From positions 193-64,192 of the forward strand of contig CAYXTA010000001.1 in the NCBI GenBank assembly GCA_964468315.1: a DNA stretch of 64,000 nt, given 5' to 3'. Of the stretch, positions 12,885 through 33,483 are shown piece by piece; positions within the stretch are counted from its first letter, which is position 1, and each line of letters starts with the position of its first letter. Source of the DNA: an uncultured Candidatus Saccharibacteria bacterium. GTDB taxonomy: Bacteria > Patescibacteriota > Minisyncoccia > Phycocordibacterales > UBA9973. The position numbers were made by a program, and so were the translations under genes. The notes beneath the pieces were generated by a model. The model saw nothing but the letters and a program-made list of their open reading frames with translations, searched no databases and was not told the DNA's origin.

Positions 12885-12957
12885 GCCGAGGTAGCTCAGT
12901 TGGTAGAGCGCTCCCCTGAAGAGGGAGATGTCACCAGTTCAAATCTGGTCCTCGGCA
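12885..12957 (+). tRNA. tRNA-Phe (anticodon GAA)
   Basis: Perfect cloverleaf: gccgagg...cctcggc, D-loop agttggta, anticodon loop ctGAAga, T-arm accag ttcaaat ctggt. Confidence 0.85.
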
Positions 12958-14498: not shown

Positions 14499-14618
14499 AC
14501 ACTGGGGGAATTTATGGGATTTCACCTTATTTATAAAGACCGGACGGACTTCCGACTCCTTGCGAATTTCGCAGAAATTCGCTTTTGACCCGACCATTTT
14601 CGCCGACTTCTGTGGTTG
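14492..14618. repeat. inverted repeat A, right copy (127 bp)
   Basis: Matches 12955..13081 in inverted orientation. Contains the recombinase ATG and upstream region. Confidence 0.9.
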
Positions 14619-14882
14619 TGCGCTAATTATACGCTTTGCGCGAACTTTTTTCGAGAAGCAAAGTGATTAAGCGCATCCGTTGCGCTGAAGCGCCACCACG
14701 CCAAGCGTGGTGCTTTTCCTAAAAGGAAAAGACGGAAGCGCTTAGACCCAATGCGGACTCGGTTTTGCGAAAGCTATATTCTCTGGGATACGATTTTGCA
14801 AAACCTCGGCATATTCTTTTTTGAAATTCGGCAGGGTTTCGGTTTGGTTTGGCACGCAGGAGGGTCTGGGAGGAATGCGTGC
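14619..14882. repeat. inverted repeat B, left copy (about 264 bp, GC-rich)
   Basis: Reverse complement of 30958..31215 with a few mismatches. Begins gtgcgctaattatacg immediately after repeat A. Confidence 0.85.
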
Positions 14883-14920
14883 ACCTTTAATTTTGTACCC
14901 TGTTATATTTTAACATACCA

Positions 14921-14936
14921 TTGCGGTATACTGCAA
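14921..14936. promoter_or_regulatory. imperfect palindrome upstream of the HTH gene (candidate controller operator)
   Basis: ttgcggtatactgcaa is a near-palindrome centred on gtatac, about 20 bp upstream of the 14956 ATG. Confidence 0.3.
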
Positions 14937-14955
14937 CAAGGAGTAAACTCAATGT

Positions 14956-15162
14956 ATGAAAAGTGAGTCAAAAAAACTGGGAGGAAATCTAAAAACCATC
15001 CGAACTACAAAGGCAATATCACAAGGTGATATAGCGCGATCACTCGACGTTAGTCGAGGGTTTATTAGTAATATTGAAAATGGCAAAACCAACCCAACAC
15101 TTGAAACAATCGCAAGATTGGCAAAAGCTGTTGGTGTATCAACTAACGAGCTTTTGAAATAA
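14956..15162 (+). CDS. XRE-family HTH regulator (restriction-modification controller-like C protein)
   Basis: 68 aa. ISQGDIARSLDVSRGFISNIENGKTNPTLETIARLAKAVGVSTNELL is the canonical HTH_3/XRE fold. Lies immediately upstream of the restriction/helicase operon. Confidence 0.75.
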   Translation: MKSESKKLGGNLKTIRTTKAISQGDIARSLDVSRGFISNIENGKTNPTLETIARLAKAVGVSTNELLK

Positions 15163-15166
15163 TTGA

Positions 15167-18100
15167 ATGATAAAGAATTTCAACAATAAGACAGAAAAGG
15201 TTGGTGATGACCTAAAAAATACTATTAAAAAAGGCAGTAAACTTGATATTGCTGCTGCTATTTTTTCTATGTATGGATTTGAGAGCTTAAAAACTGAATT
15301 AAAAAATATTGATGAACTTCGTTTTATTTTCACTGATCCTACTTTTATTGAACTTGATAAAAGTAAGCGTCAAGAAAGAATGTTTGAAATTCTTGCAAAC
15401 AATAGAAAAAAAGCCATAGGAGGGTCTGATTTTGAAATAAATTTAAAGAACGAACTTAGAGGTAAATCTATTGCGAAAGAGTGCAAAAAATGGATTGAAG
15501 ATAAGGTAAAATTTAAAACAAATAGAGCTGGTGGATTCATCCAGCCTCAGTTTATTGTTCGTAATGAAGATGAATCAATTTTGTATAGTGGTATAAATGA
15601 ATTTAGTAGTTCTGGTGTGGGGTATGAAAAAGATAACTCTATTTTAAATATGGTAATGAAGTCTGATGATTATCAGACAACGCATGAGTATATTAAAAAT
15701 TTTGAAGAAGTATGGAATGACGAAAAATCATTAAAAGATGTTACTGATGAAGTCCTTGGTTATATTTCAAATATATATAAAGAGAATTCTCCTGAATTTA
15801 TTTATTACATAACACTCTATAATATTTTTGATGAATTTTTGGAAGATATAACAGAAGATGAATTGGCTAATGAAAAAACAGGGTTTAAAGAATCTGCTGT
15901 TTGGCATATGTTATACGATTTTCAAAAAGATGCTGTTTTGGGAGTTATTAATAAGCTTGAAAGACACAATGGTTGTATCTTGGCAGATAGTGTTGGATTA
16001 GGTAAGACTTTTTCTGCACTCGGTGTCATTAAATACTATCAAGAGAGAAATAAGAGTATTCTCGTTCTTTGTCCTAAAAAGCTCAGCGACAACTGGCAGA
16101 CTTTTCTTTCAAATTACGAAGACAATCAATTATATAAAGATAGATTTAATTACGATGTTTTATATCATACAGACCTTTCTCGCGATAAAGGGTTTTCAAA
16201 TGGTAAAGATCTTTCTCGTGTAAACTGGGGCAATTATGATTTGGTTGTAATCGACGAATCACATAACTTCAGAAATAATGATCCAAGAAAAGATAAGATA
16301 ACTCGATATCAGAAACTTTTAAATAATGTAATGAAAGCAGGAGTAAAAACAAAGGTCCTAATGCTCTCTGCTACTCCTGTAAATAATAAATTTACTGATT
16401 TAAAGAATCAAATAGCTTTGGCTTATGAGGGACATACAGATGTAGTTGATGATAAAATGGATATTACTAAATCAATTAATTCTATTTTAAATCAAGCACA
16501 AAGGACTTTTAATGACTGGTTAAAATTACCAGTAGAAGAACGTACTGGAACAAATCTTTTGTCTGAGTTGAATAAAAACTTCGACTTTTTTAAACTACTA
16601 GATAATATTACTATCTCAAGAAGTAGAAAACATATCATGAAGTATTATGATACTTCTGCTATTGGTAAATTCCCAAATAGATTAAAGCCTATTACTTATC
16701 GTTCGGATATTACTGATATAGAGGGATTTATGAAGGTAGATGAATTGTATGAACAATTGACCAGATTAAATATGGCCATGTATTCTCCTTTTGATTATAT
16801 TCTTCAAGATAAAATACAATTCTATAATGAAACTTATGATACTCAAATTTCAGGAAATTCGAGTTTAAAACAGTCTACTCGTGAAAAAAGTTTACAGAAA
16901 CTAGTGAAGATAAATTTTCTTAAAAGACTAGAGAGTTCTGTGGATTCATTTCGTATTACTTTGGAAAAATTTGTTAATGCAGTTGATGCAACTGTTAAAA
17001 GCATTGATGAGTTTGAAAAAACAGGAGTTAATAGTATTACAGAAGCTACCCAAATAAATGATTCTGGTTTTGATGAAGATGAGGAGAATGAAGATTGGCT
17101 TGATGATGAATTTAGTTTCGGTGGAAAAGTAAAAATAAACCTTGCGGATATGAATACTGCTGGTTGGAAGGAAGACTTACAATTTGACTATAAAATAGCA
17201 AAAGCAATTCTTGATGAAATGAAGCGTGTTACTCCAGAGCATGATTCTAAACTAAAAGATCTTCGAGATTTTATTACACATAAGATAAAAAATAATATAA
17301 ACCCAGATAATAGTAAAGTGGTAGTTTTTACAGCTTTTGCTGATACAGCAAATTATCTTTATGAAAATATATCTACTTGGGCTAAGGATACTCATGCACT
17401 AGAATCTGCTCGTATTACTGGTGGTGGAACCAATAAATGTACCCTCGATATAGATAGTCAATTTAATAACTTATTAATACATTTTTCACCACGATCAAAA
17501 GGTCGTCATGAAAAGTATAAGGACCACAAAGAAATCGATATTTTAATTGCTACTGATTGTATTTCAGAAGGTCAGAACCTTCAAGATTGTGATACTCTCG
17601 TAAACTACGATATTCACTGGAATCCTGTGCGTATAATCCAACGCTTTGGGCGTATTGACCGTATTGGATCTATTAATACTGATATACAGCTCGTAAACTT
17701 CTGGCCACAGATATCACTTGATGATTATATTAATCTTAAAAACCGCGTAGAGGGTCGTATGCTCCTTGTAGACATGACAGCAACTGGAGATGACAATGTG
17801 CTTACAAATCAATCTTCGGATATAGATTTTAGAAAACAACAATTAGAAAGACTTCAAAATGAAGTTGTGGATATTGAAGAAATGGATTCTGGTATTTCTA
17901 TTACAGATTTAGGACTAAACGACTTTCGTATGGATTTGGTGAATTACATTAAGTCTGGCCAAAATTTAGAAGGTTTAGCAAATGGTATGCATGCGGTATG
18001 CCCACAAGCACCAGAAAAAGGAGTAGAAAAAGGAGTTATCTTTGTATTAAAAAATATCAACAATGAAGTAAATATTGATAATACAAATCAACTTCATCCG

Positions 18101-18427
18101 TTTTATTTAGTATATATAAATGAGCAAGGGCAAGTTATTTCAAATCATCTTAATGTAAAAAATACTTTAGATATCTTACGTTCTATCGCTAAAGGTAAAG
18201 ACGAGCCTATTCCTGTAGTTTATGAATTATTTAACGACGAGACAGACGATGGTAAGAAGATGGATAAATATTCCAATCTTTTGAGTGAGTCTATACAATC
18301 AATCATCCATGTAAAAGATGAATCAGATGTAGATAGTTTATTTAGTGTTGGTGGTACTACTGCACTTATGAATAGTATAAAAGGTCTGGAAGATTTTGAA
18401 TTAATTAGCTTTATGGTTATTAAATAG
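15167..18427 (+). CDS. SNF2-family helicase/ATPase (SNF2_N + helicase C) with uncharacterised N- and C-terminal domains
   Basis: ILADSVGLGKTFSALGVI (motif I), VIDESHNFRN (motif II DEXH), LSATPVNN, and C-terminal ILIATDCISEGQNLQDC...HWNPVRIIQRFGRIDRIGS (motifs IV-VI). Confidence 0.85.
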   Translation: MIKNFNNKTEKVGDDLKNTIKKGSKLDIAAAIFSMYGFESLKTELKNIDELRFIFTDPTFIELDKSKRQERMFEILANNRKKAIGGSDFEINLKNELRGKSIAKECKKWIEDKVKFKTNRAGGFIQPQFIVRNEDESILYSGINEFSSSGVGYEKDNSILNMVMKSDDYQTTHEYIKNFEEVWNDEKSLKDVTDEVLGYISNIYKENSPEFIYYITLYNIFDEFLEDITEDELANEKTGFKESAVWHMLYDFQKDAVLGVINKLERHNGCILADSVGLGKTFSALGVIKYYQERNKSILVLCPKKLSDNWQTFLSNYEDNQLYKDRFNYDVLYHTDLSRDKGFSNGKDLSRVNWGNYDLVVIDESHNFRNNDPRKDKITRYQKLLNNVMKAGVKTKVLMLSATPVNNKFTDLKNQIALAYEGHTDVVDDKMDITKSINSILNQAQRTFNDWLKLPVEERTGTNLLSELNKNFDFFKLLDNITISRSRKHIMKYYDTSAIGKFPNRLKPITYRSDITDIEGFMKVDELYEQLTRLNMAMYSPFDYILQDKIQFYNETYDTQISGNSSLKQSTREKSLQKLVKINFLKRLESSVDSFRITLEKFVNAVDATVKSIDEFEKTGVNSITEATQINDSGFDEDEENEDWLDDEFSFGGKVKINLADMNTAGWKEDLQFDYKIAKAILDEMKRVTPEHDSKLKDLRDFITHKIKNNINPDNSKVVVFTAFADTANYLYENISTWAKDTHALESARITGGGTNKCTLDIDSQFNNLLIHFSPRSKGRHEKYKDHKEIDILIATDCISEGQNLQDCDTLVNYDIHWNPVRIIQRFGRIDRIGSINTDIQLVNFWPQISLDDYINLKNRVEGRMLLVDMTATGDDNVLTNQSSDIDFRKQQLERLQNEVVDIEEMDSGISITDLGLNDFRMDLVNYIKSGQNLEGLANGMHAVCPQAPEKGVEKGVIFVLKNINNEVNIDNTNQLHPFYLVYINEQGQVISNHLNVKNTLDILRSIAKGKDEPIPVVYELFNDETDDGKKMDKYSNLLSESIQSIIHVKDESDVDSLFSVGGTTALMNSIKGLEDFELISFMVIK

Positions 18428-18428
18428 C

Positions 18429-19046
18429 ATGAACTTCAATTTACCCCAGCAGGCATATTTACACAGATTTATACCAAAGAATAAATTCTCTGATAAAACT
18501 GAAGTTAATACAAAGCTAAAAAAAGAATTTACAGATCAAATACAGAAAATAATTTGGGAATATAAATTAGCTCCTAGTACTGTTGGTATATCTGCCACCG
18601 AAAAAGTTGAAGAAATTCAAATATTTGAAATTCAATTAAAGGAAAAAATAATACCTAAAAATGTATTAAAAATTATAGACAAAGCTATCCCGTATCCTAT
18701 TTTATATGTTTTTAAATACGAAGGACATTATGCTTATGGTATTACCTTAAAAGAAGATAACTCTCAGAGATATTACTTCTCAGAATGGGATGAGAAAAAG
18801 GAATTTAATTTCTTTGGTATCGACCTGGAACACGTGTACCAAGGCTTAGTTACCAGTTTTATTGGTATTCGCCAGAAGGGTCAAGATTTTGCTACAATAG
18901 TAAATACAGATAAACAAATAGAATCCTTAGAAAAAGAGATCAATGCTCTGAAAAACAAGGTCAAAAATGAAAAGCAATTCAACAGAAAAGTAGAGTTAAA
19001 TAAGGTATTAGCAGAAAAAAAGAAGTCGCTCAAGTCTATATTATAA
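18429..19046 (+). CDS. small uncharacterised protein, DUF4391-like (tentative)
   Basis: 205 aa with C-terminal coiled coil. AIPYPILYVFKYEG resembles, from memory, the conserved YPI motif of the DUF4391 family, which co-occurs with SNF2 helicases and methyltransferases. Not verifiable here. Confidence 0.4.
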   Translation: MNFNLPQQAYLHRFIPKNKFSDKTEVNTKLKKEFTDQIQKIIWEYKLAPSTVGISATEKVEEIQIFEIQLKEKIIPKNVLKIIDKAIPYPILYVFKYEGHYAYGITLKEDNSQRYYFSEWDEKKEFNFFGIDLEHVYQGLVTSFIGIRQKGQDFATIVNTDKQIESLEKEINALKNKVKNEKQFNRKVELNKVLAEKKKSLKSIL

Positions 19047-19067
19047 ATTATCAATAACATCATTATT

Positions 19068-21005
19068 ATGAAAAAACTAGCAATGCAAACACCAGACCTT
19101 ACAGAAGGTAATATTACAAAGATAAAAGAACTATTTCCTAATGTAATTACTGAAAAGGAAGGTCCTGATGGTGTTATTGAAAAGGCCGTAGACTTTGAGC
19201 TTCTGAAGCAGATACTTTCAAAAGAGCTAGTGGAAGATGATAATGAGCGTTATCGCCTCGACTGGCCTGGTAAAAAAGCTTCACTTTTGAAAGCGAATAC
19301 CCCTATTACTAGCACACTTCGTCCAGACAGAGAAAGTAGTGTTAATTTTGATACAACTGAAAATGTGTTCATAGAAGGCGATAACTTTGAAGTTTTAAAA
19401 GTCCTCCAGGAGTCATATTTAGGAAAGATAAAAATGTGCTACATTGACCCCCCATACAATACGGGAACTGCAATGATTTATAGTAATGATTTCAGTAAAA
19501 CAGAAGAAGAATATGATGAAGAAATGGGTGCGGTTGATGAAGAAGGTATCAAAATGTTCAAGAATACTGACAGTAACGGTCGCTTTCATAGTGATTGGCT
19601 TAGTATGATGTATGAAAGGATTGTTGTAGCTAGAGATTTGTTAACAAATGATGGTTTTATGGCATTGGCTATTGATCATAATGAGTTACATAATTTAATA
19701 TCAATTTGTGATGAAATTTTTGGTGAAAATAATAGAGTGGGAGTAATCACTGTAGTACATAAACCAGAAGGAAGAAATCAAGAGAAGTTTTTTGGAACAA
19801 GTAATGAATTTATGCTTGTTTATTCAAAAAATAAAGATGAAGCAAATTTTAATGATGTTGTTTTAGATGATTCCCTTGCTGAGTTATTTGACTCAAACGA
19901 TGAAAGAGGAAAGTTTAAATTAAAGAATTTTATTAGATTGTCGGATGGTAAATATAGTTTGAGAGTTAATAAACCACATTTTTATTATCCTGTTTATGTT
20001 AATGGTGACTTTACAGAAATTTCACTAAGTCAAAAGGATGGATTTATCGCAGTCTATCCAATAACTCAGGCTGGGCAAGAGAGAACATGGAAAACTACAC
20101 CAGAAACATTAGTAGATAGATTTAATAAAGGTGATTTAATATTTACAAAAAATAAGGATAATGAGATAGAGCTTTTTGAGAAACTTAGAGAAAATCAAGT
20201 TATTAAAACACACTGGATTGATAAAAAATATCACGGTTATCATTTTGGTACAAAAATCATTGATTCACTATTGGGAGATAAAACATTTGATTTTCCAAAG
20301 TCATTATTTTTAATGAAGGATGTTTTAAAAATGATGGCATCAGGTGATGATATTATCTTAGATTTTTTTGCTGGATCAGGTACAACAGCACATGCTACTA
20401 TTCAGTTAAATGTAGAAGATGGCGAAAATAGAAAATTTATTATGGTTCAAATTCCAGAAAAAACAGAGAGTGATTCTGATGCATACAAAGCGGGTTATAA
20501 AACTATTTCAGAAATTAGTATGGAGCGTATACGTAGGGCAGGCAAAAAGATTGTAGAGGAAAATGCAGAAAAATTAAAAGAAAGAGAAACACCGTTAGAT
20601 ATTGGATTCCGTGTGTATAAGACTGATACAACAAACATGAAAGATGTTTACTATCATCCGTCTGCCGTCAACCAGGATGATTTGTTTAATCACGTTAGTA
20701 ATATAAAAAATGACAGAACACCAGAGGATTTGCTCACTCAGGTAATTCTTAACCTTGGGCTAACCTTAGACCTCCCAATAGAAAAGAAAAATATAAAAGG
20801 TAATGATGTTTATTTTGTCGCAGGTAATGCACTCGTTGCTTGTTTTGATGACAAGATTGATTTTGGGATCGTGGAAGAAATAGCAAAGTCTGAGCCGTTA
20901 AAAGTCGTATTCAAAGATGCAAGCTTTAAGGAAGAACAAGATAGAACAAATGTCGAAACAAAATTCAAGAGGTTGTCTCCGGAAACAATAATCACTGTAT
21001 TGTAA
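19068..21005 (+). CDS. Type III-like DNA methyltransferase (Mod; beta-class N6-adenine/N4-cytosine methyltransferase)
   Basis: CYIDPPYNTG (motif IV DPPY) lies N-terminal to ILDFFAGSGTTAHA (motif I FxGxG). This order is the beta-class permutation typical of Type III Mod. Confidence 0.85.
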   Translation: MKKLAMQTPDLTEGNITKIKELFPNVITEKEGPDGVIEKAVDFELLKQILSKELVEDDNERYRLDWPGKKASLLKANTPITSTLRPDRESSVNFDTTENVFIEGDNFEVLKVLQESYLGKIKMCYIDPPYNTGTAMIYSNDFSKTEEEYDEEMGAVDEEGIKMFKNTDSNGRFHSDWLSMMYERIVVARDLLTNDGFMALAIDHNELHNLISICDEIFGENNRVGVITVVHKPEGRNQEKFFGTSNEFMLVYSKNKDEANFNDVVLDDSLAELFDSNDERGKFKLKNFIRLSDGKYSLRVNKPHFYYPVYVNGDFTEISLSQKDGFIAVYPITQAGQERTWKTTPETLVDRFNKGDLIFTKNKDNEIELFEKLRENQVIKTHWIDKKYHGYHFGTKIIDSLLGDKTFDFPKSLFLMKDVLKMMASGDDIILDFFAGSGTTAHATIQLNVEDGENRKFIMVQIPEKTESDSDAYKAGYKTISEISMERIRRAGKKIVEENAEKLKERETPLDIGFRVYKTDTTNMKDVYYHPSAVNQDDLFNHVSNIKNDRTPEDLLTQVILNLGLTLDLPIEKKNIKGNDVYFVAGNALVACFDDKIDFGIVEEIAKSEPLKVVFKDASFKEEQDRTNVETKFKRLSPETIITVL

Positions 21006-21012
21006 TATTTAT

Positions 21013-24000
21013 ATGAAATTACAGTTTAAACAGCAACAATATCAAGCAGATGCCACAAATGCAGTGGTGCGGGTTTTTGATGGTCAAGAAAAAGGGGTTA
21101 GGAAGGAAGTGGTGGGAAGAGTTAAAGCAAATGATTTGTTTCAGAAGACTATGGTAGAAGAAATTTTTTCAAATAAAAAACTTGATATTGATGAAAAACA
21201 AATACTTACTAATGTGCAAGAACTCCAAAAAGAACAAGGAATAAAAGTTGGTAAAAAATTAGAGGGTTTAAATTTTACCGTAGAAATGGAAACAGGTACT
21301 GGTAAGACGTATGTTTACACCAAAACAATGTTTGAGCTAAATAAAGAGTATGGCTGGAATAAGTTCATAATTATGGTCCCCTCTGTTGCTATTCGTGAAG
21401 GAGTGAATAAGTCCATGGAAATAACGGCAGATCATTTTCAGGAAATATATGGTAAAAAAATAAGATTCTTTATTTATGATACAAAGAATAAGACAAATCT
21501 AACTAATATAAAATCTTTTGCAAATACATCGAATATTGAAGTGATAATAATGAATTATCAAGCTTTCGGACGAACAAGTAAAGATGCCTTGAAAATGTTC
21601 CAAAAGCTTGATGAGATGCAGTCAGAAAAGCCTATTGATGTTATCAAGCGTGCCCGCCCAATATTGATTATCGATGAGCCACAACGTTTTGGTCAAACAG
21701 CACAATCAATGCTTCCTGAATTTAACCCACTTTTTATTACTCGATATTCTGCAACACATAAAGAGGATTACAATAAAATATATCGTCTTGATGCTATTGA
21801 TGCATACAACCAAAAACTAGTTAAAAAAATAAGAGTAAAAGGGATAGAAGTAAAAGGTAATTCTGGTACGAATAGTTACTTATTCCTAGATAGAATACAT
21901 GTAAGTAGTAATGCATACCCTACCGCTACTGTGCAGATGGAGATAGAAACAAAACAATCTGGTGGAATTAAGAAGACTTTAAAGAAAATTAAGGAGGGAG
22001 ATAATTTATTTGCTGTCTCTGGTGAATTGGCTCAATACGAAGGATATCTTGTAAAAGAAATTAATGCACGTACGAATACCGTTTCTTTTACCAATGGGAT
22101 TTCAATATCAGTCGGTCAAGTCCATGGAGATGTAGATGAGCTACACATACGAACAATTCAAATACGTGAAGCAATAGCATCACATATAGAAAAAGAAAGA
22201 GAACTCTATACCAAGGGAATTAAGGTCCTCACCTTATTCTTTATTGATGAGGTTGCAAAGTATCGTGCTTACGATGATAAAGGAAAACAAATACGCTCAG
22301 AGTATGAGGAAATATTTGAATATGAATACAAACAGGCCATATCACAAAGAGATTTGTTTAATGATGAATATTATAAATACCTAGATTCTTTTGATGTATC
22401 AAAGGTTCATAATGGATATTTTTCTGTTGACAATAAAGGGAGAGCAGTAAATTCTAAAGAAACTCGAGGTCAGGATGGTAGTGACGATGTAAATGCATAT
22501 GATCTTATTATGAAAAATAAGGAACAATTACTGAGCTTCAAAGAGCCGACTCGTTTTATTTTTTCTCACTCAGCACTTCGTGAAGGATGGGATAATCCAA
22601 ATATTTTTCAAATATGCACACTAAAGCATAGTGAATCTACAATAAGTAAACGTCAAGAAATAGGCCGTGGACTTCGTATTGCTGTAAATGATCAAGGAGA
22701 AAGAATGGATCATAGTGTTCTTGAGAATGAATTTTTTGATATCAATACATTGACTGTTATTGCAAGTGAATCATATGATACTTTTTCAAAGCAATTACAA
22801 GGCGAAATTTTAGACACATTATCTGATCGCCCAAGTAGCCTAGAAGTTGGTGTATTCAAAGACAGGATTCTAAAAAATAAAGACGGAGAGACTTTTGTTT
22901 TTGACGATAAACATACTATGGATTTAATATTTATGTTTAAGGAAAAGGGTTATGTTGATAGTGATTACAAAATTACAGAAAAACTAATAGAGGCTATTGA
23001 TTCAGATACAGTTGAAATACCTGTAGTTCTTGTAAATTTTAAAACAGAATTGGTAAATATGATTCAAAAAGTGCACGCAACAAATACCTTTAAATCTTCA
23101 GAAGATGATCGTGCTAATAATGTAAAAGTATCTATTTTAAAACCTAATGAAAACTTCTTCAAACAGGAGTTTAAGGATTTATGGAATAAGATAAAAATAA
23201 AGACAGTATATGATGTTTCTTTTGATGGTAAAGAACTAATTGAAAAAAGTATCAAAAGTATCGATGCTACGCTAGATGTAAATAAAGCTACTGTTAGAGT
23301 TACTATTGGTGAGCAAAAAGACAATATAACAGAAGAATTATTAAAAAGTGGTGAGTCTATTTCAAAAACAAGTAATCAAATAGAGAAAACTGAAAGTATT
23401 TTAGGTTCAATTAAATATGACATTATAGCTGAAGTCGCAAAGGGTGCAAATATAACAAGAAAAACATCAGGTGAGATTCTTGGTAAAATGAACAAAATCA
23501 AATTTGCTTTGTTCAAGGTGAATCCCGAGCATTTTATTCGTGAGGTTGTTCGTCATATTAATGAACAAAAAGCAGCAACTCTTATAAATAATATAACTTA
23601 CCACAAGCTCGACAGTGTATATGAAGATGACATTTTTACTGTAAATAATTTCCAAGGAGCACTTGATAATAATGTTCTAAAAGTAAACAAGCATATTTAT
23701 GAATACGTGAAGACTGATTCTAAAATAGAACGTAAATTTGCAGAAGAAATGGATCTCGAAGGTAGTAAAGTCCTTATATACGCAAAATTACCTAACGGCT
23801 TTAAGATTCCTACTCCAATAGGTAATTATAATCCGGACTGGGCTATTGTATTTGATAGTAAGGATATTAAATATATCTATTTCATCGCTGAAACAAAAGG
23901 TAGTATGAGTACACTACAACTAAAAGGATCTGAATTACAAAAAATAAATTATGCTAGAAAACATTTTGAAGCATTGTCGTGTGCTGATTTGAAATACGAT

Positions 24001-24045
24001 GTTGTAGATAGTTACGAGAGTTTAATGGAAAAAGTAATGAGGTAA
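21013..24045 (+). CDS. Type III restriction enzyme Res subunit (helicase-nuclease)
   Basis: METGTGKTYV (Walker A), ILIIDEPQRF (DEAH-like), FIFSHSALREGWDNPNIFQIC (helicase motif VI region), and a long C-terminal domain. About 1000 aa, as for Res. Confidence 0.85.
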   Translation: MKLQFKQQQYQADATNAVVRVFDGQEKGVRKEVVGRVKANDLFQKTMVEEIFSNKKLDIDEKQILTNVQELQKEQGIKVGKKLEGLNFTVEMETGTGKTYVYTKTMFELNKEYGWNKFIIMVPSVAIREGVNKSMEITADHFQEIYGKKIRFFIYDTKNKTNLTNIKSFANTSNIEVIIMNYQAFGRTSKDALKMFQKLDEMQSEKPIDVIKRARPILIIDEPQRFGQTAQSMLPEFNPLFITRYSATHKEDYNKIYRLDAIDAYNQKLVKKIRVKGIEVKGNSGTNSYLFLDRIHVSSNAYPTATVQMEIETKQSGGIKKTLKKIKEGDNLFAVSGELAQYEGYLVKEINARTNTVSFTNGISISVGQVHGDVDELHIRTIQIREAIASHIEKERELYTKGIKVLTLFFIDEVAKYRAYDDKGKQIRSEYEEIFEYEYKQAISQRDLFNDEYYKYLDSFDVSKVHNGYFSVDNKGRAVNSKETRGQDGSDDVNAYDLIMKNKEQLLSFKEPTRFIFSHSALREGWDNPNIFQICTLKHSESTISKRQEIGRGLRIAVNDQGERMDHSVLENEFFDINTLTVIASESYDTFSKQLQGEILDTLSDRPSSLEVGVFKDRILKNKDGETFVFDDKHTMDLIFMFKEKGYVDSDYKITEKLIEAIDSDTVEIPVVLVNFKTELVNMIQKVHATNTFKSSEDDRANNVKVSILKPNENFFKQEFKDLWNKIKIKTVYDVSFDGKELIEKSIKSIDATLDVNKATVRVTIGEQKDNITEELLKSGESISKTSNQIEKTESILGSIKYDIIAEVAKGANITRKTSGEILGKMNKIKFALFKVNPEHFIREVVRHINEQKAATLINNITYHKLDSVYEDDIFTVNNFQGALDNNVLKVNKHIYEYVKTDSKIERKFAEEMDLEGSKVLIYAKLPNGFKIPTPIGNYNPDWAIVFDSKDIKYIYFIAETKGSMSTLQLKGSELQKINYARKHFEALSCADLKYDVVDSYESLMEKVMR

Positions 24046-24059
24046 AAATTAAATAAATT

Positions 24060-25208
24060 ATGGTAGGAAAAAATAAAAAACTAAATAAAATTTTACCAGA
24101 TAATCTTAAAAAAGAAGAGGAACGTCCTAAATGGACAGATATGAATGATGTTCTTAAGGTCTATAAGTATTACAGTAAACAGTATAGTTGGATGCATCTT
24201 GTTGTTGCTCAGAATAAATTTTCAAAGAAAAAATATCTTCGTCTAAAAAAATATTTCAATTGGTTTGCCATTCCTGATGCTGGTTATTTGGCAGTACTTC
24301 AGAATATTTTAAAAAAGGGAGCTCAAGAGCTTGAGTGGAAATATAAAAATGATTTAGAAGTAAAACTTGAAGAAGTAACAGATAAAAAAGAAAAAAGGGA
24401 TATATTAAAATCAAATAAATCGAGTGGAATTCCAGAAGAAATACTTGAATTTATACAGAAATTTCCTGACTTTACAAAAAAACTTATTTCACTTGATTTA
24501 GAAAACAAGAAATTAGAAGAAATACTTGAAGTTATGAATATGACTGCTGATGCTATTTCTGTTTCTGGTGATCGTTTTCGAATAGCATTTCAGGAGTTGC
24601 TTGGAAAGATTTCTAAAGAAGAACCTAAAAGTATGATGGAATTATCTGATTTAATGGAAAAATATAATTTGAATCAACTTACTTCACTTTTAAATATAGT
24701 AAAATCACGACTACAAACCATTGAAACATTTGAGCAAATGATTCACAACGATAAAACTTATGAAATCAGAGGCGATAAATCTGTACATCGTGTATTAGAA
24801 AATAGTATGTGGCTAGTCGATGATAAATACTGGATTGTGTCTTCGAATAAATCTCTTCGTGATTTTATTGGTGTAGGTATGGAAAAAGAGGATAAAAAAT
24901 ATAAAAGCAAAAGACCTGATTTTGTTTGTGTAGATCATGATAATAAAATAATAATATTGGAAATTAAAAGACCTTCAGTCGAATTAAAAAAAGAAGAAAT
25001 AGATCAAGCTGTTTTATATTTACGAATGATAAAAAAATATCACTCACAGAAAAAACCAGTCGAAGTCTACTTAATAGGTAATACAATTTCAGAAGAAGCG
25101 AGAGATATAGCAGAACTAATGCCAACAATAAAATTACAAACATACCAGGAATTTTTAGAAAAATGTAGAGCCAGATATAAGCAATATTTAAATATAGTAG
25201 AAGTTTAA
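24060..25208 (+). CDS. hypothetical protein with C-terminal PD-(D/E)xK nuclease-like core
   Basis: RPDFVCVDHDNKIIILEIKRP gives PD-x13-ExK. N-terminal 250 aa unassigned. Confidence 0.4.
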   Translation: MVGKNKKLNKILPDNLKKEEERPKWTDMNDVLKVYKYYSKQYSWMHLVVAQNKFSKKKYLRLKKYFNWFAIPDAGYLAVLQNILKKGAQELEWKYKNDLEVKLEEVTDKKEKRDILKSNKSSGIPEEILEFIQKFPDFTKKLISLDLENKKLEEILEVMNMTADAISVSGDRFRIAFQELLGKISKEEPKSMMELSDLMEKYNLNQLTSLLNIVKSRLQTIETFEQMIHNDKTYEIRGDKSVHRVLENSMWLVDDKYWIVSSNKSLRDFIGVGMEKEDKKYKSKRPDFVCVDHDNKIIILEIKRPSVELKKEEIDQAVLYLRMIKKYHSQKKPVEVYLIGNTISEEARDIAELMPTIKLQTYQEFLEKCRARYKQYLNIVEV

Positions 25209-25212
25209 TTTT

Positions 25213-26718
25213 ATGAAATTAATTTCTAAATCAAAATTCTTAGACTATCTAACTTGCCCTAAAGATGCATGGTTTAGAATGCATAAGCCAGAATTGAAAG
25301 AATTTGAAATTTCTTCTGGGCTACAAAACACATTTGACCAAGGTTATGAAGCTGAAGAATATGCAAAACAATTAAAAGTATTTTCTGGATTTATAGAAGT
25401 CACAGCTAAAGGAGTTGATGTAAAAAAAGAAGTTGACTCATTAATAGAGAAAAAGGTTCCAGCCATTTATCAGCCGACATTTATTGCAGATGGATTTATT
25501 ATTCGTTGCGATATGCTCGTCTGGGATTCAGAATCTTCTAAATGGGATTTGTATGAAATAAAATCATCAACAAAAAGACATGATACAGGGGCTCGAGATC
25601 ATCTGTCTGATGCAGCTTTTCAGGCAATAGTTTTGGAACGCTATGGAATCTCGGTTGGTAAAATATTTATTGTTCATCTAAATAGTGAATATATAAAAAA
25701 TGGAGAAGTAGACATTGAAAATCTTTTTGTGCTAAATGATAGCACTTCTAAGGTTACAGCAAGAAGAGTTACCGTAGCTCCAGAAATGGAAGAAGCCAAA
25801 AAGTATCTTAATCAAGAAACTGAACCAAAGAATGGTTGCGATTGCATATATCGCGGTCGTAGTAGTCATTGTGCAACAACACACATTTCATACCCTAGTA
25901 TTCCTGAGTACTCTGTTCATGATCTTTCATACATTGGAAAGAGTCCTGATAAATTGAGAAGTTTAATAGAGAAAGGGATATATCACATACATGATATTGA
26001 AGATGCTTCTAATTTGACTGACAAGCAACAAAATCAAGTAATGGTGCATAAATCAGATACTGAAATGATAGACAAGGAAGAGATTGAGAATGTTCTGAAT
26101 AGCTATACCTACCCTTTATATTTCTTTGATTATGAGACTTATGCCCCAGCTATACCTATCTATGATGGGTTTTTCCCATATCAAAGAATTCCAATTCAGT
26201 TCTCTTTACATGTTATTGATAAAAAAGGTGGAGAAGTACGCCATGTGGAATATTTACAAACTGAAAATATAGATCCGTCGGAAACCGTGGCAAAAATGTT
26301 AAGTGAGAATATAGAACCAGAAGGAACAATTCTCGCATGGAATGTTGGTTTTGAAAAAAGTGTGACTACCGAACTTGCCTTACGGTTGCCAAAGTACAAG
26401 AATGTTTTAACTAGAATATGCGACCAAATGCAAGACTTAATGGATATATTTTCCAATCAACATTATGTACATAAAGGTTTTAAAGGTAGAGTAGCCATTG
26501 AACCAGTAATGAATACACTACTTCCTGAAATGACATATGACCACTTACCTTACACAGGAGCAGATGTTGGGTATGTATGGTGGAGTGATATAGTTAATGA
26601 AGGTAAAGAACCAAAAACAAGAGATGAAAAATTACATTTACTTTTGGAGTATTGTAAACAAGATACTTTTGTTATGGTGGAAATTTTCAGGATACTTAAT
26701 GAGATTATCAAGAAGTAA
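25213..26718 (+). CDS. RecB/Cas4-like PD-(D/E)xK nuclease fused to DEDD-like exonuclease domain (DUF2779-like, tentative)
   Basis: N-terminal C15 plus CDCx8C Cys cluster. DGFIIRCDM...LYEIK (D...ExK). YFFDYETYAP resembles exonuclease motif I; compare FVDIETTGL in the DnaQ-like ORF at 54715. Confidence 0.45.
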   Translation: MKLISKSKFLDYLTCPKDAWFRMHKPELKEFEISSGLQNTFDQGYEAEEYAKQLKVFSGFIEVTAKGVDVKKEVDSLIEKKVPAIYQPTFIADGFIIRCDMLVWDSESSKWDLYEIKSSTKRHDTGARDHLSDAAFQAIVLERYGISVGKIFIVHLNSEYIKNGEVDIENLFVLNDSTSKVTARRVTVAPEMEEAKKYLNQETEPKNGCDCIYRGRSSHCATTHISYPSIPEYSVHDLSYIGKSPDKLRSLIEKGIYHIHDIEDASNLTDKQQNQVMVHKSDTEMIDKEEIENVLNSYTYPLYFFDYETYAPAIPIYDGFFPYQRIPIQFSLHVIDKKGGEVRHVEYLQTENIDPSETVAKMLSENIEPEGTILAWNVGFEKSVTTELALRLPKYKNVLTRICDQMQDLMDIFSNQHYVHKGFKGRVAIEPVMNTLLPEMTYDHLPYTGADVGYVWWSDIVNEGKEPKTRDEKLHLLLEYCKQDTFVMVEIFRILNEIIKK

Positions 26719-26719
26719 T

Positions 26720-26851
26720 ATGGACGAAGAAACATTTGAAATAGCAAAAGAAAATGATTTAAGTCTTGAGGAAGCTGAAGAACTTCGGGACTTTGCTGAC
26801 GAGAATGACATTGAAGTAGATGATGCTTTAGAAATTTGGCAAGATTTATAA
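26720..26851 (+). CDS. small acidic protein (43 aa)
   Basis: MDEETFEIAKENDLSLEEAEELRDFADENDIEVDDALEIWQDL. Track ORF 26597.. overlaps the upstream gene; ATG 26720 follows its stop. Confidence 0.3.
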   Translation: MDEETFEIAKENDLSLEEAEELRDFADENDIEVDDALEIWQDL

Positions 26852-27118
26852 AAAGATGCTATAATATAAGTGTTACAGAAGTAACACTTAGTCTATGAGT
26901 TTATATAGACCATACGAGGTTCCCTTGAATGGGTAGGTGAATTGGGAAATCTGCGAGGATCCAAATACCTTATATGACTGATTGCCAAAGGCGGTTGGGA
27001 GATTTCATTAAGATTGTCGAATCTTGATCAAAACTCTTAGTCGCTTTTTTCTTTGCCTAGTCAGCAGATCAAAGCTCTCAGGGTATTATTAAATTAAAAA
27101 TAATAATATAATAAAAAT

Positions 27119-28000
27119 ATGATATACACAAATAAAATACAAAAAGCTATAGAACTCGCAATACAAACTCACGAGATAGATGATAAACAAAAAAGGAAAG
27201 GCAAAGATATACCGTACATTACGCACCCGCTTTCTGTAGGGCTTATACTCGCTACAGCAGGGGGTACAGAGGATGTGATAGTCGCTGGTATACTCCACGA
27301 TACTATTGAAGATAGTACAGTTGAAAAGAAAATCACAAAGGAAATGATTGCCGAGCAATTTGGTGATAATGTAATGCAATTAGTCCTAAGTGTTACAGAA
27401 CAAAATAAATCCTTGTCCTGGGAAGAAAGAAAAGCCGAAGCGCTTGAGCATATAAAAACATTTTCACACGATTCACTGCTATTAAAGTCTGCAGACATAA
27501 TTTCAAATACAACAGAACTTATTTCTGATTACCAAATAGAGAGAGAAGAAACTTTTGATAGGTTCAATGCCCCAAAAGAAAGAATTTTAAAAGGTTATAC
27601 TGATTCTATAAATGCTATCTTGTATAAATGGTCAGAGAGTCCTCTTGCTGAGGATCTAAAAAATGTATTAGGAGAAATAAAAAGTATGACAGAAAGTAAA
27701 GAAGAAGTTGAATTTTATCTAAATTCAGAAGAATTAAAAGAAAGGCGTATTGTGTACGTTGCTTGTGAAGATGAAGAGAATTGTGGTTTTATTGTGGAAT
27801 TCAAATTTCCTAATTGTACTTTTTTCTTCTGTAAAGAACACAAAATGGGATTTAATATTGATTTAAATACTGTTACTGATGATGGCGTTTTGTGTAAACA
27901 GCATAATGAAATGGAGCGCTACAATGTCTTGACAGAAGATAATGTTTGCCCAGTATGCGAAAAGAATACCCTTGCAATACTTTCTGCTAGAATTAACTAA
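27119..28000 (+). CDS. HD-domain phosphohydrolase, RelA/SpoT-type (p)ppGpp hydrolase-like (SAH) with C-terminal Cys-rich zinc ribbon
   Basis: YITHPLSVGLILATAGGTEDVIVAGILHDTIED (HD motif with the His-Asp pair). C-terminal CxxC...CPVC. Confidence 0.7.
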   Translation: MIYTNKIQKAIELAIQTHEIDDKQKRKGKDIPYITHPLSVGLILATAGGTEDVIVAGILHDTIEDSTVEKKITKEMIAEQFGDNVMQLVLSVTEQNKSLSWEERKAEALEHIKTFSHDSLLLKSADIISNTTELISDYQIEREETFDRFNAPKERILKGYTDSINAILYKWSESPLAEDLKNVLGEIKSMTESKEEVEFYLNSEELKERRIVYVACEDEENCGFIVEFKFPNCTFFFCKEHKMGFNIDLNTVTDDGVLCKQHNEMERYNVLTEDNVCPVCEKNTLAILSARIN

Positions 28001-28047
28001 AAAATTAAAAATTTGGCAGGATCTATAAAAAGGTCTATGATAGGGGT

Positions 28048-28938
28048 ATGGAAGGACTAACATTTAAAGAAAAAATTATATTGGAAAAAACAAACAAATT
28101 CTTAAAAAAACACAAGCCGTCTTTTGTATTGACTGCTATTGTTATATTGAGTGTTTTAATCGGCAATGCCATCTATTTTTCTATTTGGCCGTCTGACGAT
28201 AAGACCCTTTTAAGTTCTTTGACTGATATTGAGAATGACAACTGCTCTGTAGTAGGTATTAATTTACATGGAACTTTACTAACATATATTGCACCTCATT
28301 CTGAAAGTGACCCCCTTTTTAATTATGATTCCGTAGCTAGTGAAGATATATATTTTAAAATTAAACAAGCAAATGAAGATGAAAGTATAAAAGCAATTAT
28401 ACTGGAAGTTGACTCTGGTGGAGGGTCTGGAATTGCTGGTGAAGAGGTTTCAAATATTATTAAAAATAGTGCTAAACCTGTCGTAGGATGGATAAGAAGT
28501 GTAAGTGCGTCGGCGTCGTATTTTGCTGTAAGTAGTGCTGATAGGATATTTGCCTCAAAATTTTCTGATGTTGGAGGAATAGGTGTGACCGCTTCTTATT
28601 TAAGTAATGTAAAAAAGAATCAAAAAGATGGCTTAAATTACGAGCAATTGATTGCAGGTAAATATAAAGATTCAGGAAGACCTGATAAGCCACTTACAGA
28701 AGAAGAAAAGAAATTATTTTTGAGAGATATAAATATTGGGTATGAGAACTTTATGAAAGCTGTTTCCGCGAATCGTAATATACCAATTGAAAAAGTTAGA
28801 GAAATTGCTGATGGTTCAACAGTGATGGGAGAGCAAGCAAAGGAACTTGGTTTGATTGACGAGATTGGTGGAATTAATGAGGTTGAAAAGTATCTTGAGG
28901 AAACAATCGGAGAAAAGCCAGAGATTTGTTGGAAGTAA
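28048..28938 (+). CDS. sppA: signal peptide peptidase SppA-like serine protease
   Basis: N-terminal TM. IKAIILEVDSGGGS...ASYFAVSSADRIFA resembles the SppA/ClpP-fold catalytic region. Confidence 0.7.
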   Translation: MEGLTFKEKIILEKTNKFLKKHKPSFVLTAIVILSVLIGNAIYFSIWPSDDKTLLSSLTDIENDNCSVVGINLHGTLLTYIAPHSESDPLFNYDSVASEDIYFKIKQANEDESIKAIILEVDSGGGSGIAGEEVSNIIKNSAKPVVGWIRSVSASASYFAVSSADRIFASKFSDVGGIGVTASYLSNVKKNQKDGLNYEQLIAGKYKDSGRPDKPLTEEEKKLFLRDINIGYENFMKAVSANRNIPIEKVREIADGSTVMGEQAKELGLIDEIGGINEVEKYLEETIGEKPEICWK

Positions 28939-28960
28939 TTTAATAATATAATATTTAACT

Positions 28961-29413
28961 ATGAAAAATAACCGTAACAGCGTATTAACAGGAGTAACTG
29001 GCGAATATTATGTAGCCGCAGAACTTTCTCGTATGGGATATATTGCTTCTATCACTCTCAGAAATACTAAAGGGGTAGATATTCTGTGTTCAAACTCTGA
29101 CGCGACGAAAACTGTTAGTATACAAGTAAAGACTGGATCAGAAGTTAAGAGCACTTGGATTCTAAGTGAAAAGTCAGAAAAATATTATGCACAAAAACTT
29201 TTTTATGTGTTCGTAACTTTGAGTAAAAATTTACACCCAGAGTATTCTATCGTACCAAGTAAAATCGTTGCTGATTTCATAACTAAAAATCACAAAAATT
29301 ACCTAGGTTCTCTTAGTAAAAAGGGCAAAGAGCATAAAGATAGCTCTATGAGAAAGTTTATTGATTTGGAGAAAAAGTATTTAAATAGGTGGGACTTATT
29401 AGGTCTTAACTAG
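28961..29413 (+). CDS. hypothetical protein, restriction-endonuclease-like fold (tentative)
   Basis: EYYVAAELSRMGY...GVDILC...IQVKT shows an E / D / QxK spacing reminiscent of PD-(D/E)xK. Confidence 0.35.
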   Translation: MKNNRNSVLTGVTGEYYVAAELSRMGYIASITLRNTKGVDILCSNSDATKTVSIQVKTGSEVKSTWILSEKSEKYYAQKLFYVFVTLSKNLHPEYSIVPSKIVADFITKNHKNYLGSLSKKGKEHKDSSMRKFIDLEKKYLNRWDLLGLN

Positions 29414-29500
29414 GTAGGTATGGGTATTATACCACAATTTAATCTAAAATGCAAGTATTTTTTACCATACAAATTAAGCTCTTTTTGATATAATCCATAT

Positions 29501-30073
29501 ATGGCAGATGAAATAGACACTAATACCCAAACGCCTCAAACTGAGCCTCTAGAGGTGCCAAAATTGGCACCAGAAGCAACTTCTGAAGCTCAAACGGCTC
29601 AAATACCATCAAGTGAGCCGTTGGCTACTGAACCCGAGCTAATTGCAACACCAGAAGTAACGTCTGAACCTTTGCAAACTTCTGGCGAGGTAAAAGCCGA
29701 GCCAGAGAAAGAAGAAACGGAAATCCCTGAATCAAAACACGAAGATCAAACTTCTTCACAATCTGAGACTCAATCCCAACCCACTACTCCACCACAGGAG
29801 GCAACGCCTCCTGTGGTAATAATCCCTCCTGTAAATAAAATTCGTGAACTTCTTGCGAAAGCCAGAAATGCAATTCAATTTAGAAAAAGAAAGAAACTAG
29901 AAAAAATCATGAACATGTTCACGAAGCGAACAAATGTAACTAACGACGAAGTTGAGAAACTTTTGCATGTCTCTGATGCCACTGCAACAAGATATCTCAC
30001 TATCCTCAAGAAAGAAAACAAGATTAAACAATCTGGAAAAACAGGGAAAGGAGTTTCGTATTCTAAGATTTAA
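29501..30073 (+). CDS. Pro/Thr/Glu-rich low-complexity protein with C-terminal winged-helix
   Basis: N-terminal 110 aa acidic PT-rich. C-terminal VEKLLHVSDATATRYLTILKKENKIKQSGKTGKGVSY is HTH-like. Confidence 0.4.
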   Translation: MADEIDTNTQTPQTEPLEVPKLAPEATSEAQTAQIPSSEPLATEPELIATPEVTSEPLQTSGEVKAEPEKEETEIPESKHEDQTSSQSETQSQPTTPPQEATPPVVIIPPVNKIRELLAKARNAIQFRKRKKLEKIMNMFTKRTNVTNDEVEKLLHVSDATATRYLTILKKENKIKQSGKTGKGVSYSKI

Positions 30074-30284
30074 CCAAATTTTTTTGAATCAAAAAATGCA
30101 ACCTTAACGCTGTGGAAAAATAGTAAAGATATGGATTTATGATAACCTTGTTGTATTCATATTGAGTTATCTTTAACTTTACGCTATCAACTTGATAATA
30201 ATACTGACCATTGTCTTCAATAGCTTCTGCAAAATATTTAAAATTATTTCCTAACAAACAAATCTTTAGTGTAACTACTTTCAT
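30063..30284 (-). CDS. hypothetical small protein
   Basis: 73-aa ORF with no supporting features. Confidence 0.2.
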   Translation of the reverse strand: MKVVTLKICLLGNNFKYFAEAIEDNGQYYYQVDSVKLKITQYEYNKVIINPYLYYFSTALRLHFLIQKNLVKS

Positions 30285-30489
30285 AAAATAAAAAATTCCT
30301 TAAATAATAAGGAAAGGTTTTTTGCGTGGACTAGACACAAACTTATCTTTCCCATATGGGTTGGATTTAGCACCTTGCATTTGTAGGTTGCTGGATGGAT
30401 TACTGAGCCAATTCTCTAACCACCACTCTTGATATAAACTATTAAGTTGTAATTTAATTCTATCAATAAAAAAGAATAAGAGCAAATTT

Positions 30490-31215
30490 TATAGGGAGCA
30501 GAAGTTGCCTACGCGCACGGGTGGGTGGAGTGTGTGCGTACTCGCACACACTCGGGGCAAGTATTTGCATTTGCACCTCGGGCATTTCCGCTATGTGCGT
30601 CCATGGCTGACGGATGAGCGCCGACCCTATATTGCAATACTAAAGGTAAATAGCGAAGCGACACACTAACATCTAATCTGATAAAGCGTAGAGTGGGGGT
30701 GGCGAGGGTGGACCGCTGTATTCAGCGACACCCGACCCGGGGAGAGGAAACTTCCTCTCCCCGAGAAGCGCGGGCAATCTACTAAACGGCTCATCCTCTG
30801 GTATTTGAGCCGTTTAACTATCTGGTTTGCCCGCTCATAGGCATGTAGGCGTGAGTAGCCATAGCGGAAATGCCCGAGGCGGATGCCGAGGGTGATACCT
30901 ACCGACAGACAGGACAACACATCGAGAAAGGAACGAGGTACAATATTGAATTTGTATTTTTGAGTTATGCCCGCATTCCTCCCAGACCCTCCTGCGTGCC
31001 AAACCAAACCGAAACCCCGCCGAATTTCAAAAAAGAATATGCCGAGGTTTTGCGAAATCGTATCCCAGAGAATATAGCTTTCGCAAAACCGAGTCCGCAT
31101 TGGGTCTAAGCGCTTCCGTCTTTTCCTTTTAGGAAAAGCACCACGCTTGGCGTGGTGGCGCTTCAGCGCAACGGATGCGCTTAATCACTTTGCTTCTCGA
31201 AAAAAGTTCGCGCAA
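30490..31215 (-). ncRNA. GC-rich structured element (candidate large ncRNA or ORF-less mobile RNA element); contains inverted repeat B right copy
   Basis: About 725 nt and clearly GC-richer than its surroundings. Many hairpins (for example ggggagaggaa actt cctctcccc, and gagtgtgtgcg tact cgcacacactc). A 20-nt long-range pairing joins 30574-30593 and 30863-30882. ORFs in it (30666..31100 minus, 30870..31109 plus) have foreign composition. Strand uncertain. Confidence 0.35.
30958..31215. repeat. inverted repeat B, right copy
   Basis: Reverse complement of 14619..14882. Ends ...taattagcgcacaa at the island/chromosome junction. Confidence 0.85.
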
Positions 31216-31270
31216 AGCGTATAATTAGCGCACAAATTTATATATAATAACTTAAAAAATTAAGTACTTT

Positions 31271-32272: not shown

Positions 32273-32286
32273 GACGGTTTTTTTAT
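32258..32286. terminator. bidirectional terminator
   Basis: aaaccg cttaaga cggttt plus a T-run, between convergent genes. Confidence 0.6.
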
Positions 32287-32294
32287 TATTGATA

Positions 32295-32765: not shown

Positions 32766-32787
32766 AATATTTTTAGTTGATTAATTT

Positions 32788-33480: not shown

Positions 33481-33483
33481 TTT

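Follow-up and report, generated by a model that had tools for sequence, protein, structure and literature searches.

Two abutting pairs of long inverted repeats in a large serine recombinase island at a tRNA gene: a probable second, intact attP

Introduction

Large serine recombinases (LSRs) are prized tools for genome engineering, and the usual view is that they work with a single attP and a single attB and that the product is free of long repeats. Among the elements they move are the clostridial transposons Tn4451/Tn4453, by TnpX, and Tn5397, by TndX. How does an island with a single recombinase gene of this kind, and two pairs of long inverted repeats, compare with them? The island in question, of 18,275 bp when one copy of its core is counted (12961..31235), is part of a stretch of 64,000 nucleotides (nt), here called the window, from an uncultured Candidatus Saccharibacteria bacterium (assembly GCA_964468315.1, contig CAYXTA010000001.1, positions 193 to 64,192 of the forward strand). 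Its parts follow one another as tRNA|A|rec|A′|B|cargo|B′|chromosome, where rec is the LSR gene, A and A′ form one inverted pair and B and B′ the other; this order had been given in a preliminary description of the same DNA and is correct. The probable explanation, developed below, is that B is the P arm of the island's attachment site and that a second, intact attP in inverted orientation, made up of A′ and B, is retained inside the island.

The inverted repeats

The window was scanned for repeats from 8000 to 36000 and the arms were then compared without gaps. One inverted pair, B/B′, relates 14616-14883 (plus strand) to the reverse complement of 30968-31235 over 268 nt that differ at 14797, 14833 and 14880 only (3 mismatches, 99% identity), and the other, A/A′, relates 12955-13085 to 14491-14621 over 131 nt with 1 mismatch (again 99%). 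At either end of every arm identity is lost abruptly. A repeat of the length and identity of B/B′ cannot be chance. BLAST against the whole window found no copies of B beyond these two and no additional copies of A or of region C, the latter being unique sequence (30500-30967, ~468 nt, 52.6% G+C) into which the right copy, B′, extends. A′ overlaps B by TTGTGC at 14616-14621.

The preliminary description had thus rightly recognised a long inverted repeat around the cargo, its contiguity with A′ via the shared hexamer and the extension of its right copy. It had set the left arm to within 3 nt of the limits found here, but the right one (31215..30958) was out by 20 nt at its outer end and 10 nt at its inner end; and while the shared start TTGTGCGCTAATTATACG is indeed at the outer ends of both B and B′, it reads towards the cargo and not ‘outward’.

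Could the repeats have been created by assembly? Many related contigs do break inside or beside such repeats, but breaks are what real repeats are expected to cause, the copies in the window differ from each other at 3 positions (B) and 1 position (A), and the same layout is present in the assemblies of many projects as well as in a complete chromosome (CP060229.1, locus L076). The probability that an artefact is involved is close to nil.

Junctions, core and empty site

One 6-nt core, GCACAA, is common to all three junctions. At the first, J1, where the tRNA gene meets A (core at 12955..12960), the sequence is ...CCTCG GCACAA CCACAGAAG...; at J2, where A′ meets B (core at 14616..14621, TTGTGC on the plus strand), the minus strand has ...ATTAGC GCACAA CCACAGAAG...; and at J3, where B′ meets the flank (core at 31230..31235), it is ...ATTAGC GCACAA ATTTATAT.... 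On the minus strand, J2 thus unites the left half of J3 with the right half of J1, as expected of an intact attP (B′-core-A) if J1 is attL and J3 attR. The outer A (plus strand) would then be the P′ arm of attL and A′ (plus strand) that of the internal attP, whose P arm would be B (plus strand), with B′ (minus strand) as the P arm of attR. The attB predicted is ...GGTCCTCGGCACAAATTTATATATAATAAC.

Contigs with relatives of the genes in the flanks were searched for empty sites. Three from Logan (L084-L086), 100% identical to the window from 31230 to 35047, start with ...GGTCCTCGGCACAA|ATTTATATATAATAAC, i.e., with the end of tRNA-Phe directly on the right flank and one GCACAA; this opening, also given as ...CAGTTCAAATCTGGTCCTCGGCACAA|ATTTATATATAATAACTT, equals the predicted attB and is from the same strain. 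As the core common to the two sides is merely 6 nt, their erroneous joining in the assembly graph is impossible. A JGI contig from a relative (L094) aligns over nt 1-56 with window 12905-12960 (100% identity) and over nt 51-1483 with 31230-32656 (94.8%), and the overlap of these alignments holds a single GCACAA. With one core in each of these empty sites, 12961-31235 is therefore one site-specific insertion or excision unit, and the 3′ end of the tRNA-Phe (GAA) gene (12885..12958, plus strand; called by ARAGORN, Rfam tRNA 73.1 bits, and present in the empty-site contigs) is the left half of its integration target. A further contig with a homologue of the flank gene (L087) differs in synteny and is uninformative.

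The ‘composite mobile unit’ of the preliminary description can now be divided: the empty sites, with tRNA-Phe joined to the right flank, uphold ‘mobile’, but ‘composite’, in the sense of a transposon, is without support. In a composite transposon the repeats would be insertion sequence (IS) copies with a transposase, and B is 268 nt of non-coding DNA with neither an IS nor a conserved open reading frame (ORF), the sole recombinase gene being outside the B pair.

What would the two pairs of repeats then represent? The P arm of the attP occurs twice, once in attR (as B′) and once in the intact internal attP (as B), and each arm of the internal attP pairs, inverted, with the matching arm of attL or attR, which explains both repeat pairs and their abutting at TTGTGC. 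Integration at the 3′ end of tRNA-Phe, by crossover inside GCACAA, would yield attL (tRNA|A) and attR (B′|flank), and recombination of J1 with J3 would yield a circle in which an inverted repeat of ~400 bp (B′-core-A) splits the 1.4-kb recombinase module from the cargo module. If integration uses the attP copy where the recombinase gene ends, the other attP would be left intact and would keep promoter, 5′ untranslated region (UTR) and gene joined in the chromosome. What carries this reading is the junction logic and the precise empty site, together with the presence of the layout in 69 related loci and recent transfer, to which the following sections are devoted.

More distant relatives (L088-L090) have tRNA-Phe joined to window 32252 and are without the 333-amino acid (aa) gene that adjoins the island (31271-32272); the 1,017-bp piece which they lack (window 31236-32251) has no terminal repeats. 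A related element, L017, carries a homologue of this 333-aa gene as its cargo (65% identity), and in L095 another homologue is 2 kb away from the gene for a different serine recombinase. The tRNA-Phe gene is an insertion hotspot with at least two layers of insertion.

A family of related loci

Relatives were gathered by exact-protein look-ups and a scan of one genome per species, followed by self-BLAST and ARAGORN. There are 69 non-redundant loci, from genomes of the candidate phyla radiation (CPR), with an A-type inverted repeat around a recombinase gene, the arms having a median length of 131 nt and a spacing of about 1414 nt; the members of the A pair are 100% identical in 31 loci, 97 to <100% identical in 21 and less similar in 17. 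A tRNA or transfer-messenger RNA (tmRNA) gene adjoins the repeat at the 3′ side of the recombinase gene in 54 of the 69. The targets are headed by tRNA-Ala (16), -Leu (15) and -Glu (13); Gly, Ser and tmRNA account for 2 each, and Phe, Arg, Tyr and Lys are single cases. At four loci (L036, L052, L056 and L083) J1 has a 3′ end of the ...TCTCCACCA type, and at two loci ARAGORN called a tmRNA; tmRNA genes are therefore also targets. In these loci too, J2 combines the left half of J3 with the right half of J1, and the core, 4-6 nt in length, changes in step with the 3′ end of the tRNA targeted. Among loci with enough upstream sequence, 21 have a B-type pair (154-426 nt) around 1.1-6.7 kb of cargo. 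The cargo is unrelated between elements, and the smallest elements carry one membrane-protein gene and are without the gene for a helix-turn-helix (HTH) protein that the window's island has beside B. B is therefore specific to these elements, being neither a generic genomic repeat nor tied to restriction-modification. A full-text search of the literature on serine-recombinase elements of the CPR, on inverted attP and on tRNA islands gave no description of the double-repeat layout.

At some neighbouring tRNA genes there are tandem or back-to-back elements, or extra arms (L062, 6390-8032 and 8162-11524; L032, 416-3934; L040, about 5101).

Recent mobility

How recently have these elements moved? 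Between the window and L001, part of B, A′, the recombinase gene and A are 99.8-100% identical over 1.9 kb, and the sole alignable gene of the host flanks is 72.5% identical. Two other members, L003 and L006, are 99.97% identical over 3.8 kb that include cargo, B, A′, the recombinase gene and A, and the former is inserted in tRNA-Gly(TCC) and the latter in a tRNA-Leu-like 3′ end. The G+C of the recombinase gene is mostly 0.39-0.48, as against 0.30 to 0.65 for the host flanks across loci. Such near-identical elements in divergent hosts or different tRNA genes indicate very recent horizontal transfer and an apparently relaxed choice of target; the element evidently moves as a unit, accepting differing tRNA genes that have a common T-arm and a GCAC-type end. 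One further idea, that recombinase and cargo modules have diverged independently (L001 being 100% and L096 88-95% identical to the window), was dropped, as the contigs are of one bulk metagenome assembly and are unlinkable.

Do the two modules nevertheless represent two independent elements that happen to be side by side, an IS-like A-rec-A′ and a non-autonomous B-cargo-B′, each inserted at a GCACA-type site? Each module is bounded by a near-perfect inverted repeat and cores, and the G+C of the cargo is host-like, that of recombinase, A, B and C being higher. There are also three loci, L018 (9798-11622), L051 (183-2000) and L066 (1-1720), where a recombinase module without an adjacent cargo module is flanked on either side by the 3′ end of a complete tRNA gene, the two genes being different but of one type; in these the B arm is absent and the repeat arms are more diverged. 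But the empty sites lack both modules together, L003 and L006, near-identical throughout, moved as one unit to different tRNA genes, and a lone module at a tRNA|flank site is found in 0 of the 69 loci. Furthermore, A and B begin with the core in opposite senses, which fits a single B′-core-A site and not a terminus shared by two elements. Two independent elements are a distinctly unlikely explanation. An internal attP, for its part, would stay recombination-competent, and its reaction with a second attB would yield a recombinase module between two tRNA genes; such competence would explain the three two-tRNA variants.

Orientation of the modules

A recombinase gene exactly between inverted repeats brings Hin and Gin to mind, and an invertible segment, as in phase-variable restriction-modification loci, was the second suggestion of the preliminary description. 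The recombinase might flip its own gene (via A/A′), the cargo (via B/B′), or both, as a switch of expression. The recombinase ORF starts and ends inside the repeats and would hence be intact after a flip, and in rare relatives, L038 and L011, the module is in the opposite orientation. In L038 the sequence past the B arm matches neither side of related elements, and the flip may involve the recombinase module alone or both modules. A Logan contig from ERR4405441 (L097, 1-1761) even links the 3′ part of the recombinase gene, an A arm, the core, B and the HTH gene, an arrangement corresponding either to a recombinase module flipped relative to the window or to a circle-type junction; however, it is untrustworthy, as an assembly with k=31 cannot resolve a 131-nt repeat.

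Against inversion, among genomes the recombinase module has the same orientation in 44 clearly classified loci and is flipped in 1-2. The orientation of the cargo relative to the recombinase is the same wherever it can be scored, and an HTH homologue, wherever detected beside an element, is on the inner-B side. A flip of the cargo would in any case be silent, as both copies of B are outside all genes and have the same outward promoter-like site. The cargo of relatives, unrelated from one to the next, is not restriction-modification (e.g., it may be a single membrane protein). Finally, J1/J2 and J2/J3 would be attL × attP and attP × attR pairs, which canonical LSRs are not known to synapse. Programmed inversion is very improbable, and the genomes compared lend the suggestion of a phase-variable segment no support.

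The recombinase gene and its promoter-like sites

The LSR gene (12939..14498, minus strand) encodes 519 aa from an ATG at 14498, and its product, which has homologues numbering in the thousands, matches the Pfam families Resolvase (PF00239, 5.1e-23), Recombinase (PF07508, 1.8e-12) and Zn_ribbon_recom (PF13408, 3.8e-9). Those homologues that are named are from CPR/Patescibacteria; relatives are absent from the viral contigs of IMG/VR, and exact-protein look-ups of both the 519-aa and a 552-aa version found neither on record. The segment YARKSTEEDD is invariant or nearly so across 32 homologues, and the nearest solved structure is that of SPbeta SprA (E about 1e-6, SprA/YokA).

The start codon of the gene is inside A′, which would also supply its 5′ UTR. 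At its other end the ORF passes through A and the core and runs on into the tRNA gene, antisense to it. The conserved motif near the C-terminus of the recombinase, (T/M)VSIxWG(E/D)LWDF, is encoded on the minus strand of the inner part of A; the entropy by codon position over WGELWDF is 0.41/0.28/0.79, a sign of protein-coding selection on this part of A. In an alignment of 42 loci, the ORF both begins and ends within the same inverted repeat, with the start codon and WGELWDF on opposite strands.

Within B there is a sigma-70-like promoter-like site, TCGAAA-17 nt-TATAAT (14626..14654, minus strand, 10/12 matches), directed through the core into A′ and the recombinase gene; its second copy (31197..31225, plus strand) is aimed outward, at the 333-aa gene of the flank. 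A -10-like hexamer is present 3-4 nt ahead of the start of repeat A at 40 of the 62 related J2 junctions. We infer that B holds the promoter of the recombinase gene, with transcription starting at about the crossover point and A′ serving as 5′ UTR. The P-arm promoter would thus fire across the crossover point, its outer copy doing so into the host flank, and the internal attP, being between divergent genes and overlapping the promoter-like site, may serve as an operator at which the recombinase represses itself in the manner of Tn3 res.

The B of the window also has a terminator-like hairpin, with compensatory changes among close relatives. As a family feature a terminator in B was discarded: in a simple scan a hairpin followed by a T-run was present in 8 of 43 related arms.

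What weighs against a second attP

Several points tell against the reading in which an intact attP is retained in the island. Two identical attP on a circle predict two isomers in about equal numbers, and yet the 44 loci of one orientation are opposed by just L038 and L011 (1-2 flipped). The dominant isomer has the tRNA gene 3′ of the recombinase gene and the intact attP 5′ of it, and independent recent insertions are all of this isomer. Both copies of a repeat co-vary: in both A copies (12961-12992 and 14584-14615), about 15 of the 32 nt beside the core distinguish the window from L004, the B arm and the remainder of A being identical. Repeat identity is lower in rearranged variants. In the contigs examined the circular form was not observed, and no candidate for a directionality factor is conserved, the minimal relatives consisting of the recombinase and one membrane-protein gene. 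A test for dyad symmetry in 58 presumed attP gave a weak maximum of 0.34, against a background of about 0.25, that is 5 nt off the core, and it is not used as support. Besides, the promoter, the operator and the recombination competence ascribed to the internal site are inferred from sequence alone.

With an internal attP, the co-variation of the copies is explicable only if gene conversion is invoked. Isomer bias, co-variation and the lower identity in rearranged variants together could reflect gene conversion plus selection against the other isomer, or action in cis at the end of the gene, or else an asymmetric intermediate. Would the last of these be a better explanation altogether? The copies of the repeat might pair, or share one template, e.g., in a single-stranded circle where the inverted repeat of ~400 nt folds into one duplex attP. 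Integration would then take one orientation and renew identical repeats at every event, which would account for the near-exclusive isomer, for the A pairs that are 100% identical in 31 of 69 loci despite the fast divergence of A between elements, and for the lower repeat identity of rearranged, presumably immobile, variants. However, serine recombinases cut all four strands, and a hairpin attP reacting with a duplex attB would yield hairpin-capped chromosome ends and demand extra steps. Genes for rolling-circle replication or transfer are absent, minimal elements having the recombinase and one cargo gene, viral contigs lack relatives, and gene conversion from one inverted copy to the other would make them identical more simply. 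A folded intermediate of this kind is highly unlikely.

A broader proposal is that isomer bias, concerted repeats and an ORF that ends in its own site are signs of an undescribed serine-recombinase pathway acting on an asymmetric intermediate, which might be a folded or hairpin attP, or might depend on the recombinase binding in cis, while still being translated, to the attP copy where its own gene ends. This is unlikely. If true, it would mean orientation-specific integration that leaves an ‘armed’ intact attP, which could drive the capture or exchange of cargo and rearrangements between tRNA genes.

Cargo and region C

Divergent from the recombinase gene across the internal site is the gene for an XRE-family HTH protein of 68 aa (14956..15162, plus strand; Pfam HTH_3, 7.6e-15). 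It is followed by the cargo (15167..30073, plus strand), described here from Pfam, PADLOC and G+C. The cargo encodes a Snf2/HKD helicase, DUF4391, a Type III methyltransferase, a Type III restriction enzyme and a 382-aa nuclease-like protein, together with DUF2779, an HD-domain protein, an S49 peptidase, a 150-aa ORF and a 190-aa winged-HTH protein; the PADLOC matches are MTase_III (2e-204), REase_III (2e-290) and HKD+Snf2 (2e-133). Its G+C is about 32%, like that of the host flanks, the values for the recombinase gene, A, B and C being 41%, 47%, 49% and 53%.

Region C (30500..30967, minus strand), the structured non-coding continuation of B′, is present at the distal end of the cargo only. 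Its conservation extends to L002, L003, L005 and L006, where changes in stems are compensatory, and it holds a 20-bp long-range helix (CCTCGGGCATTTCCGCTATG / CATAGCGGAAATGCCCGAGG); the smallest related elements are without it. Region C is a candidate for a new structured RNA, or DNA structure, of one subgroup. A search of Rfam over window 11000-33000, at E up to 1, gave nothing besides two tRNAs and an S-adenosylmethionine (SAM) riboswitch, with A, B and C unmatched, and at gathering thresholds A, B and C had no match in seven related loci either.

Some side observations concern the same part of the island. A hairpin motif, AAACGGCTCA...TGAGCCGTTT, occurs at 29592-29622, inside the 190-aa ORF, and at 30785-30815, in region C. 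The SAM riboswitch match (30340-30438, minus strand; 46.6 bits against a gathering score of 44.4) is within the island, antisense to the cargo operon and a few kb from the SAM-dependent Type III restriction-modification system; ahead of it is a promoter-like site, TTGATA-17-AATAGT (30466->30438), and downstream an ORF of 73 aa (30284-30063) with no family match.

Significance and comparison with known systems

Why should the layout matter? It belongs to a large natural family that is abundant in CPR/Patescibacteria, has hosts of 30 to 65% G+C and carries defence systems along with other cargo. The family could explain the spread of defence islands in bacteria that have tiny genomes and few known mobile elements, and its layout could reveal new regulation of serine integrases, whether autoregulation, action in cis, excision without a directionality factor or cassette exchange. 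For annotation, paired inverted repeats beside tRNA genes would mark one island, and neither a composite transposon nor a phase-variation switch.

With which described systems does the island share features, and where does it part from them? Phase-variable restriction-modification loci, shufflons and Hin/Gin likewise have inverted repeats and a recombinase, here beside restriction-modification genes, but the repeats of the island are outside coding sequence, the cargo of its relatives is of other kinds and orientation is uniform among genomes. In engineered cassette exchange with two inverted attP (e.g., MiMIC), inverted sites for a serine integrase flank modules and permit, in principle, exchange independent of orientation; those designs are artificial, and in the island a natural exchange of the recombinase or cargo module is hypothetical. 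The predicted circle, split by a long inverted repeat that contains a recombination site, resembles the yeast 2-micron plasmid with its FLP/FRT in 599-bp inverted repeats. FLP, however, is a tyrosine recombinase that inverts to amplify copy number, and the island has no evident replication function or inversion. With Tn3/gamma-delta res there is in common a site between divergent genes that overlaps a promoter, and at which a recombinase could repress its own gene; but TnpR, a small resolvase, works on res sites in direct repeat within a cointegrate, and repression by the LSR of the island is hypothetical. Tn4451/Tn4453 and Tn5397 likewise have one LSR as the only mobility protein, and a promoter whose transcription crosses the joined ends of the element to enter the recombinase gene. 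In Tn4451 that promoter exists only in the excised circle, whereas the internal duplicate of the island would join promoter and gene in the integrated state too, and Tn4451 has neither long inverted repeats nor a tRNA target.

In protein and chemistry alike, the island is an LSR integrative element. It shares with the integrases of phiC31, Bxb1, A118 and SPbeta (SprA) the set of three domains, Resolvase, Recombinase and zinc ribbon, and with the elements they serve precise insertion, a short core in attP and attB, hybrid attL and attR, and an exact empty site, the unoccupied attB being found in relatives. The differences are several. The recombinase is only distantly related to these (SprA/YokA, E about 1e-6), and its ORF starts and ends inside a repeat. 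A directionality factor, which LSRs need for excision, their attP × attB reaction being one-way, is not evident. The family inserts at the conserved 3′ end of tRNA and tmRNA genes, and elements that are nearly the same can occupy different tRNA genes. Where one attP and no long repeats are the rule for the class, an internal attP is recognisable here and in the 69 related loci, and it is the keeping of this second, inverted and probably intact attP after integration that would give the island its two pairs of long inverted repeats.

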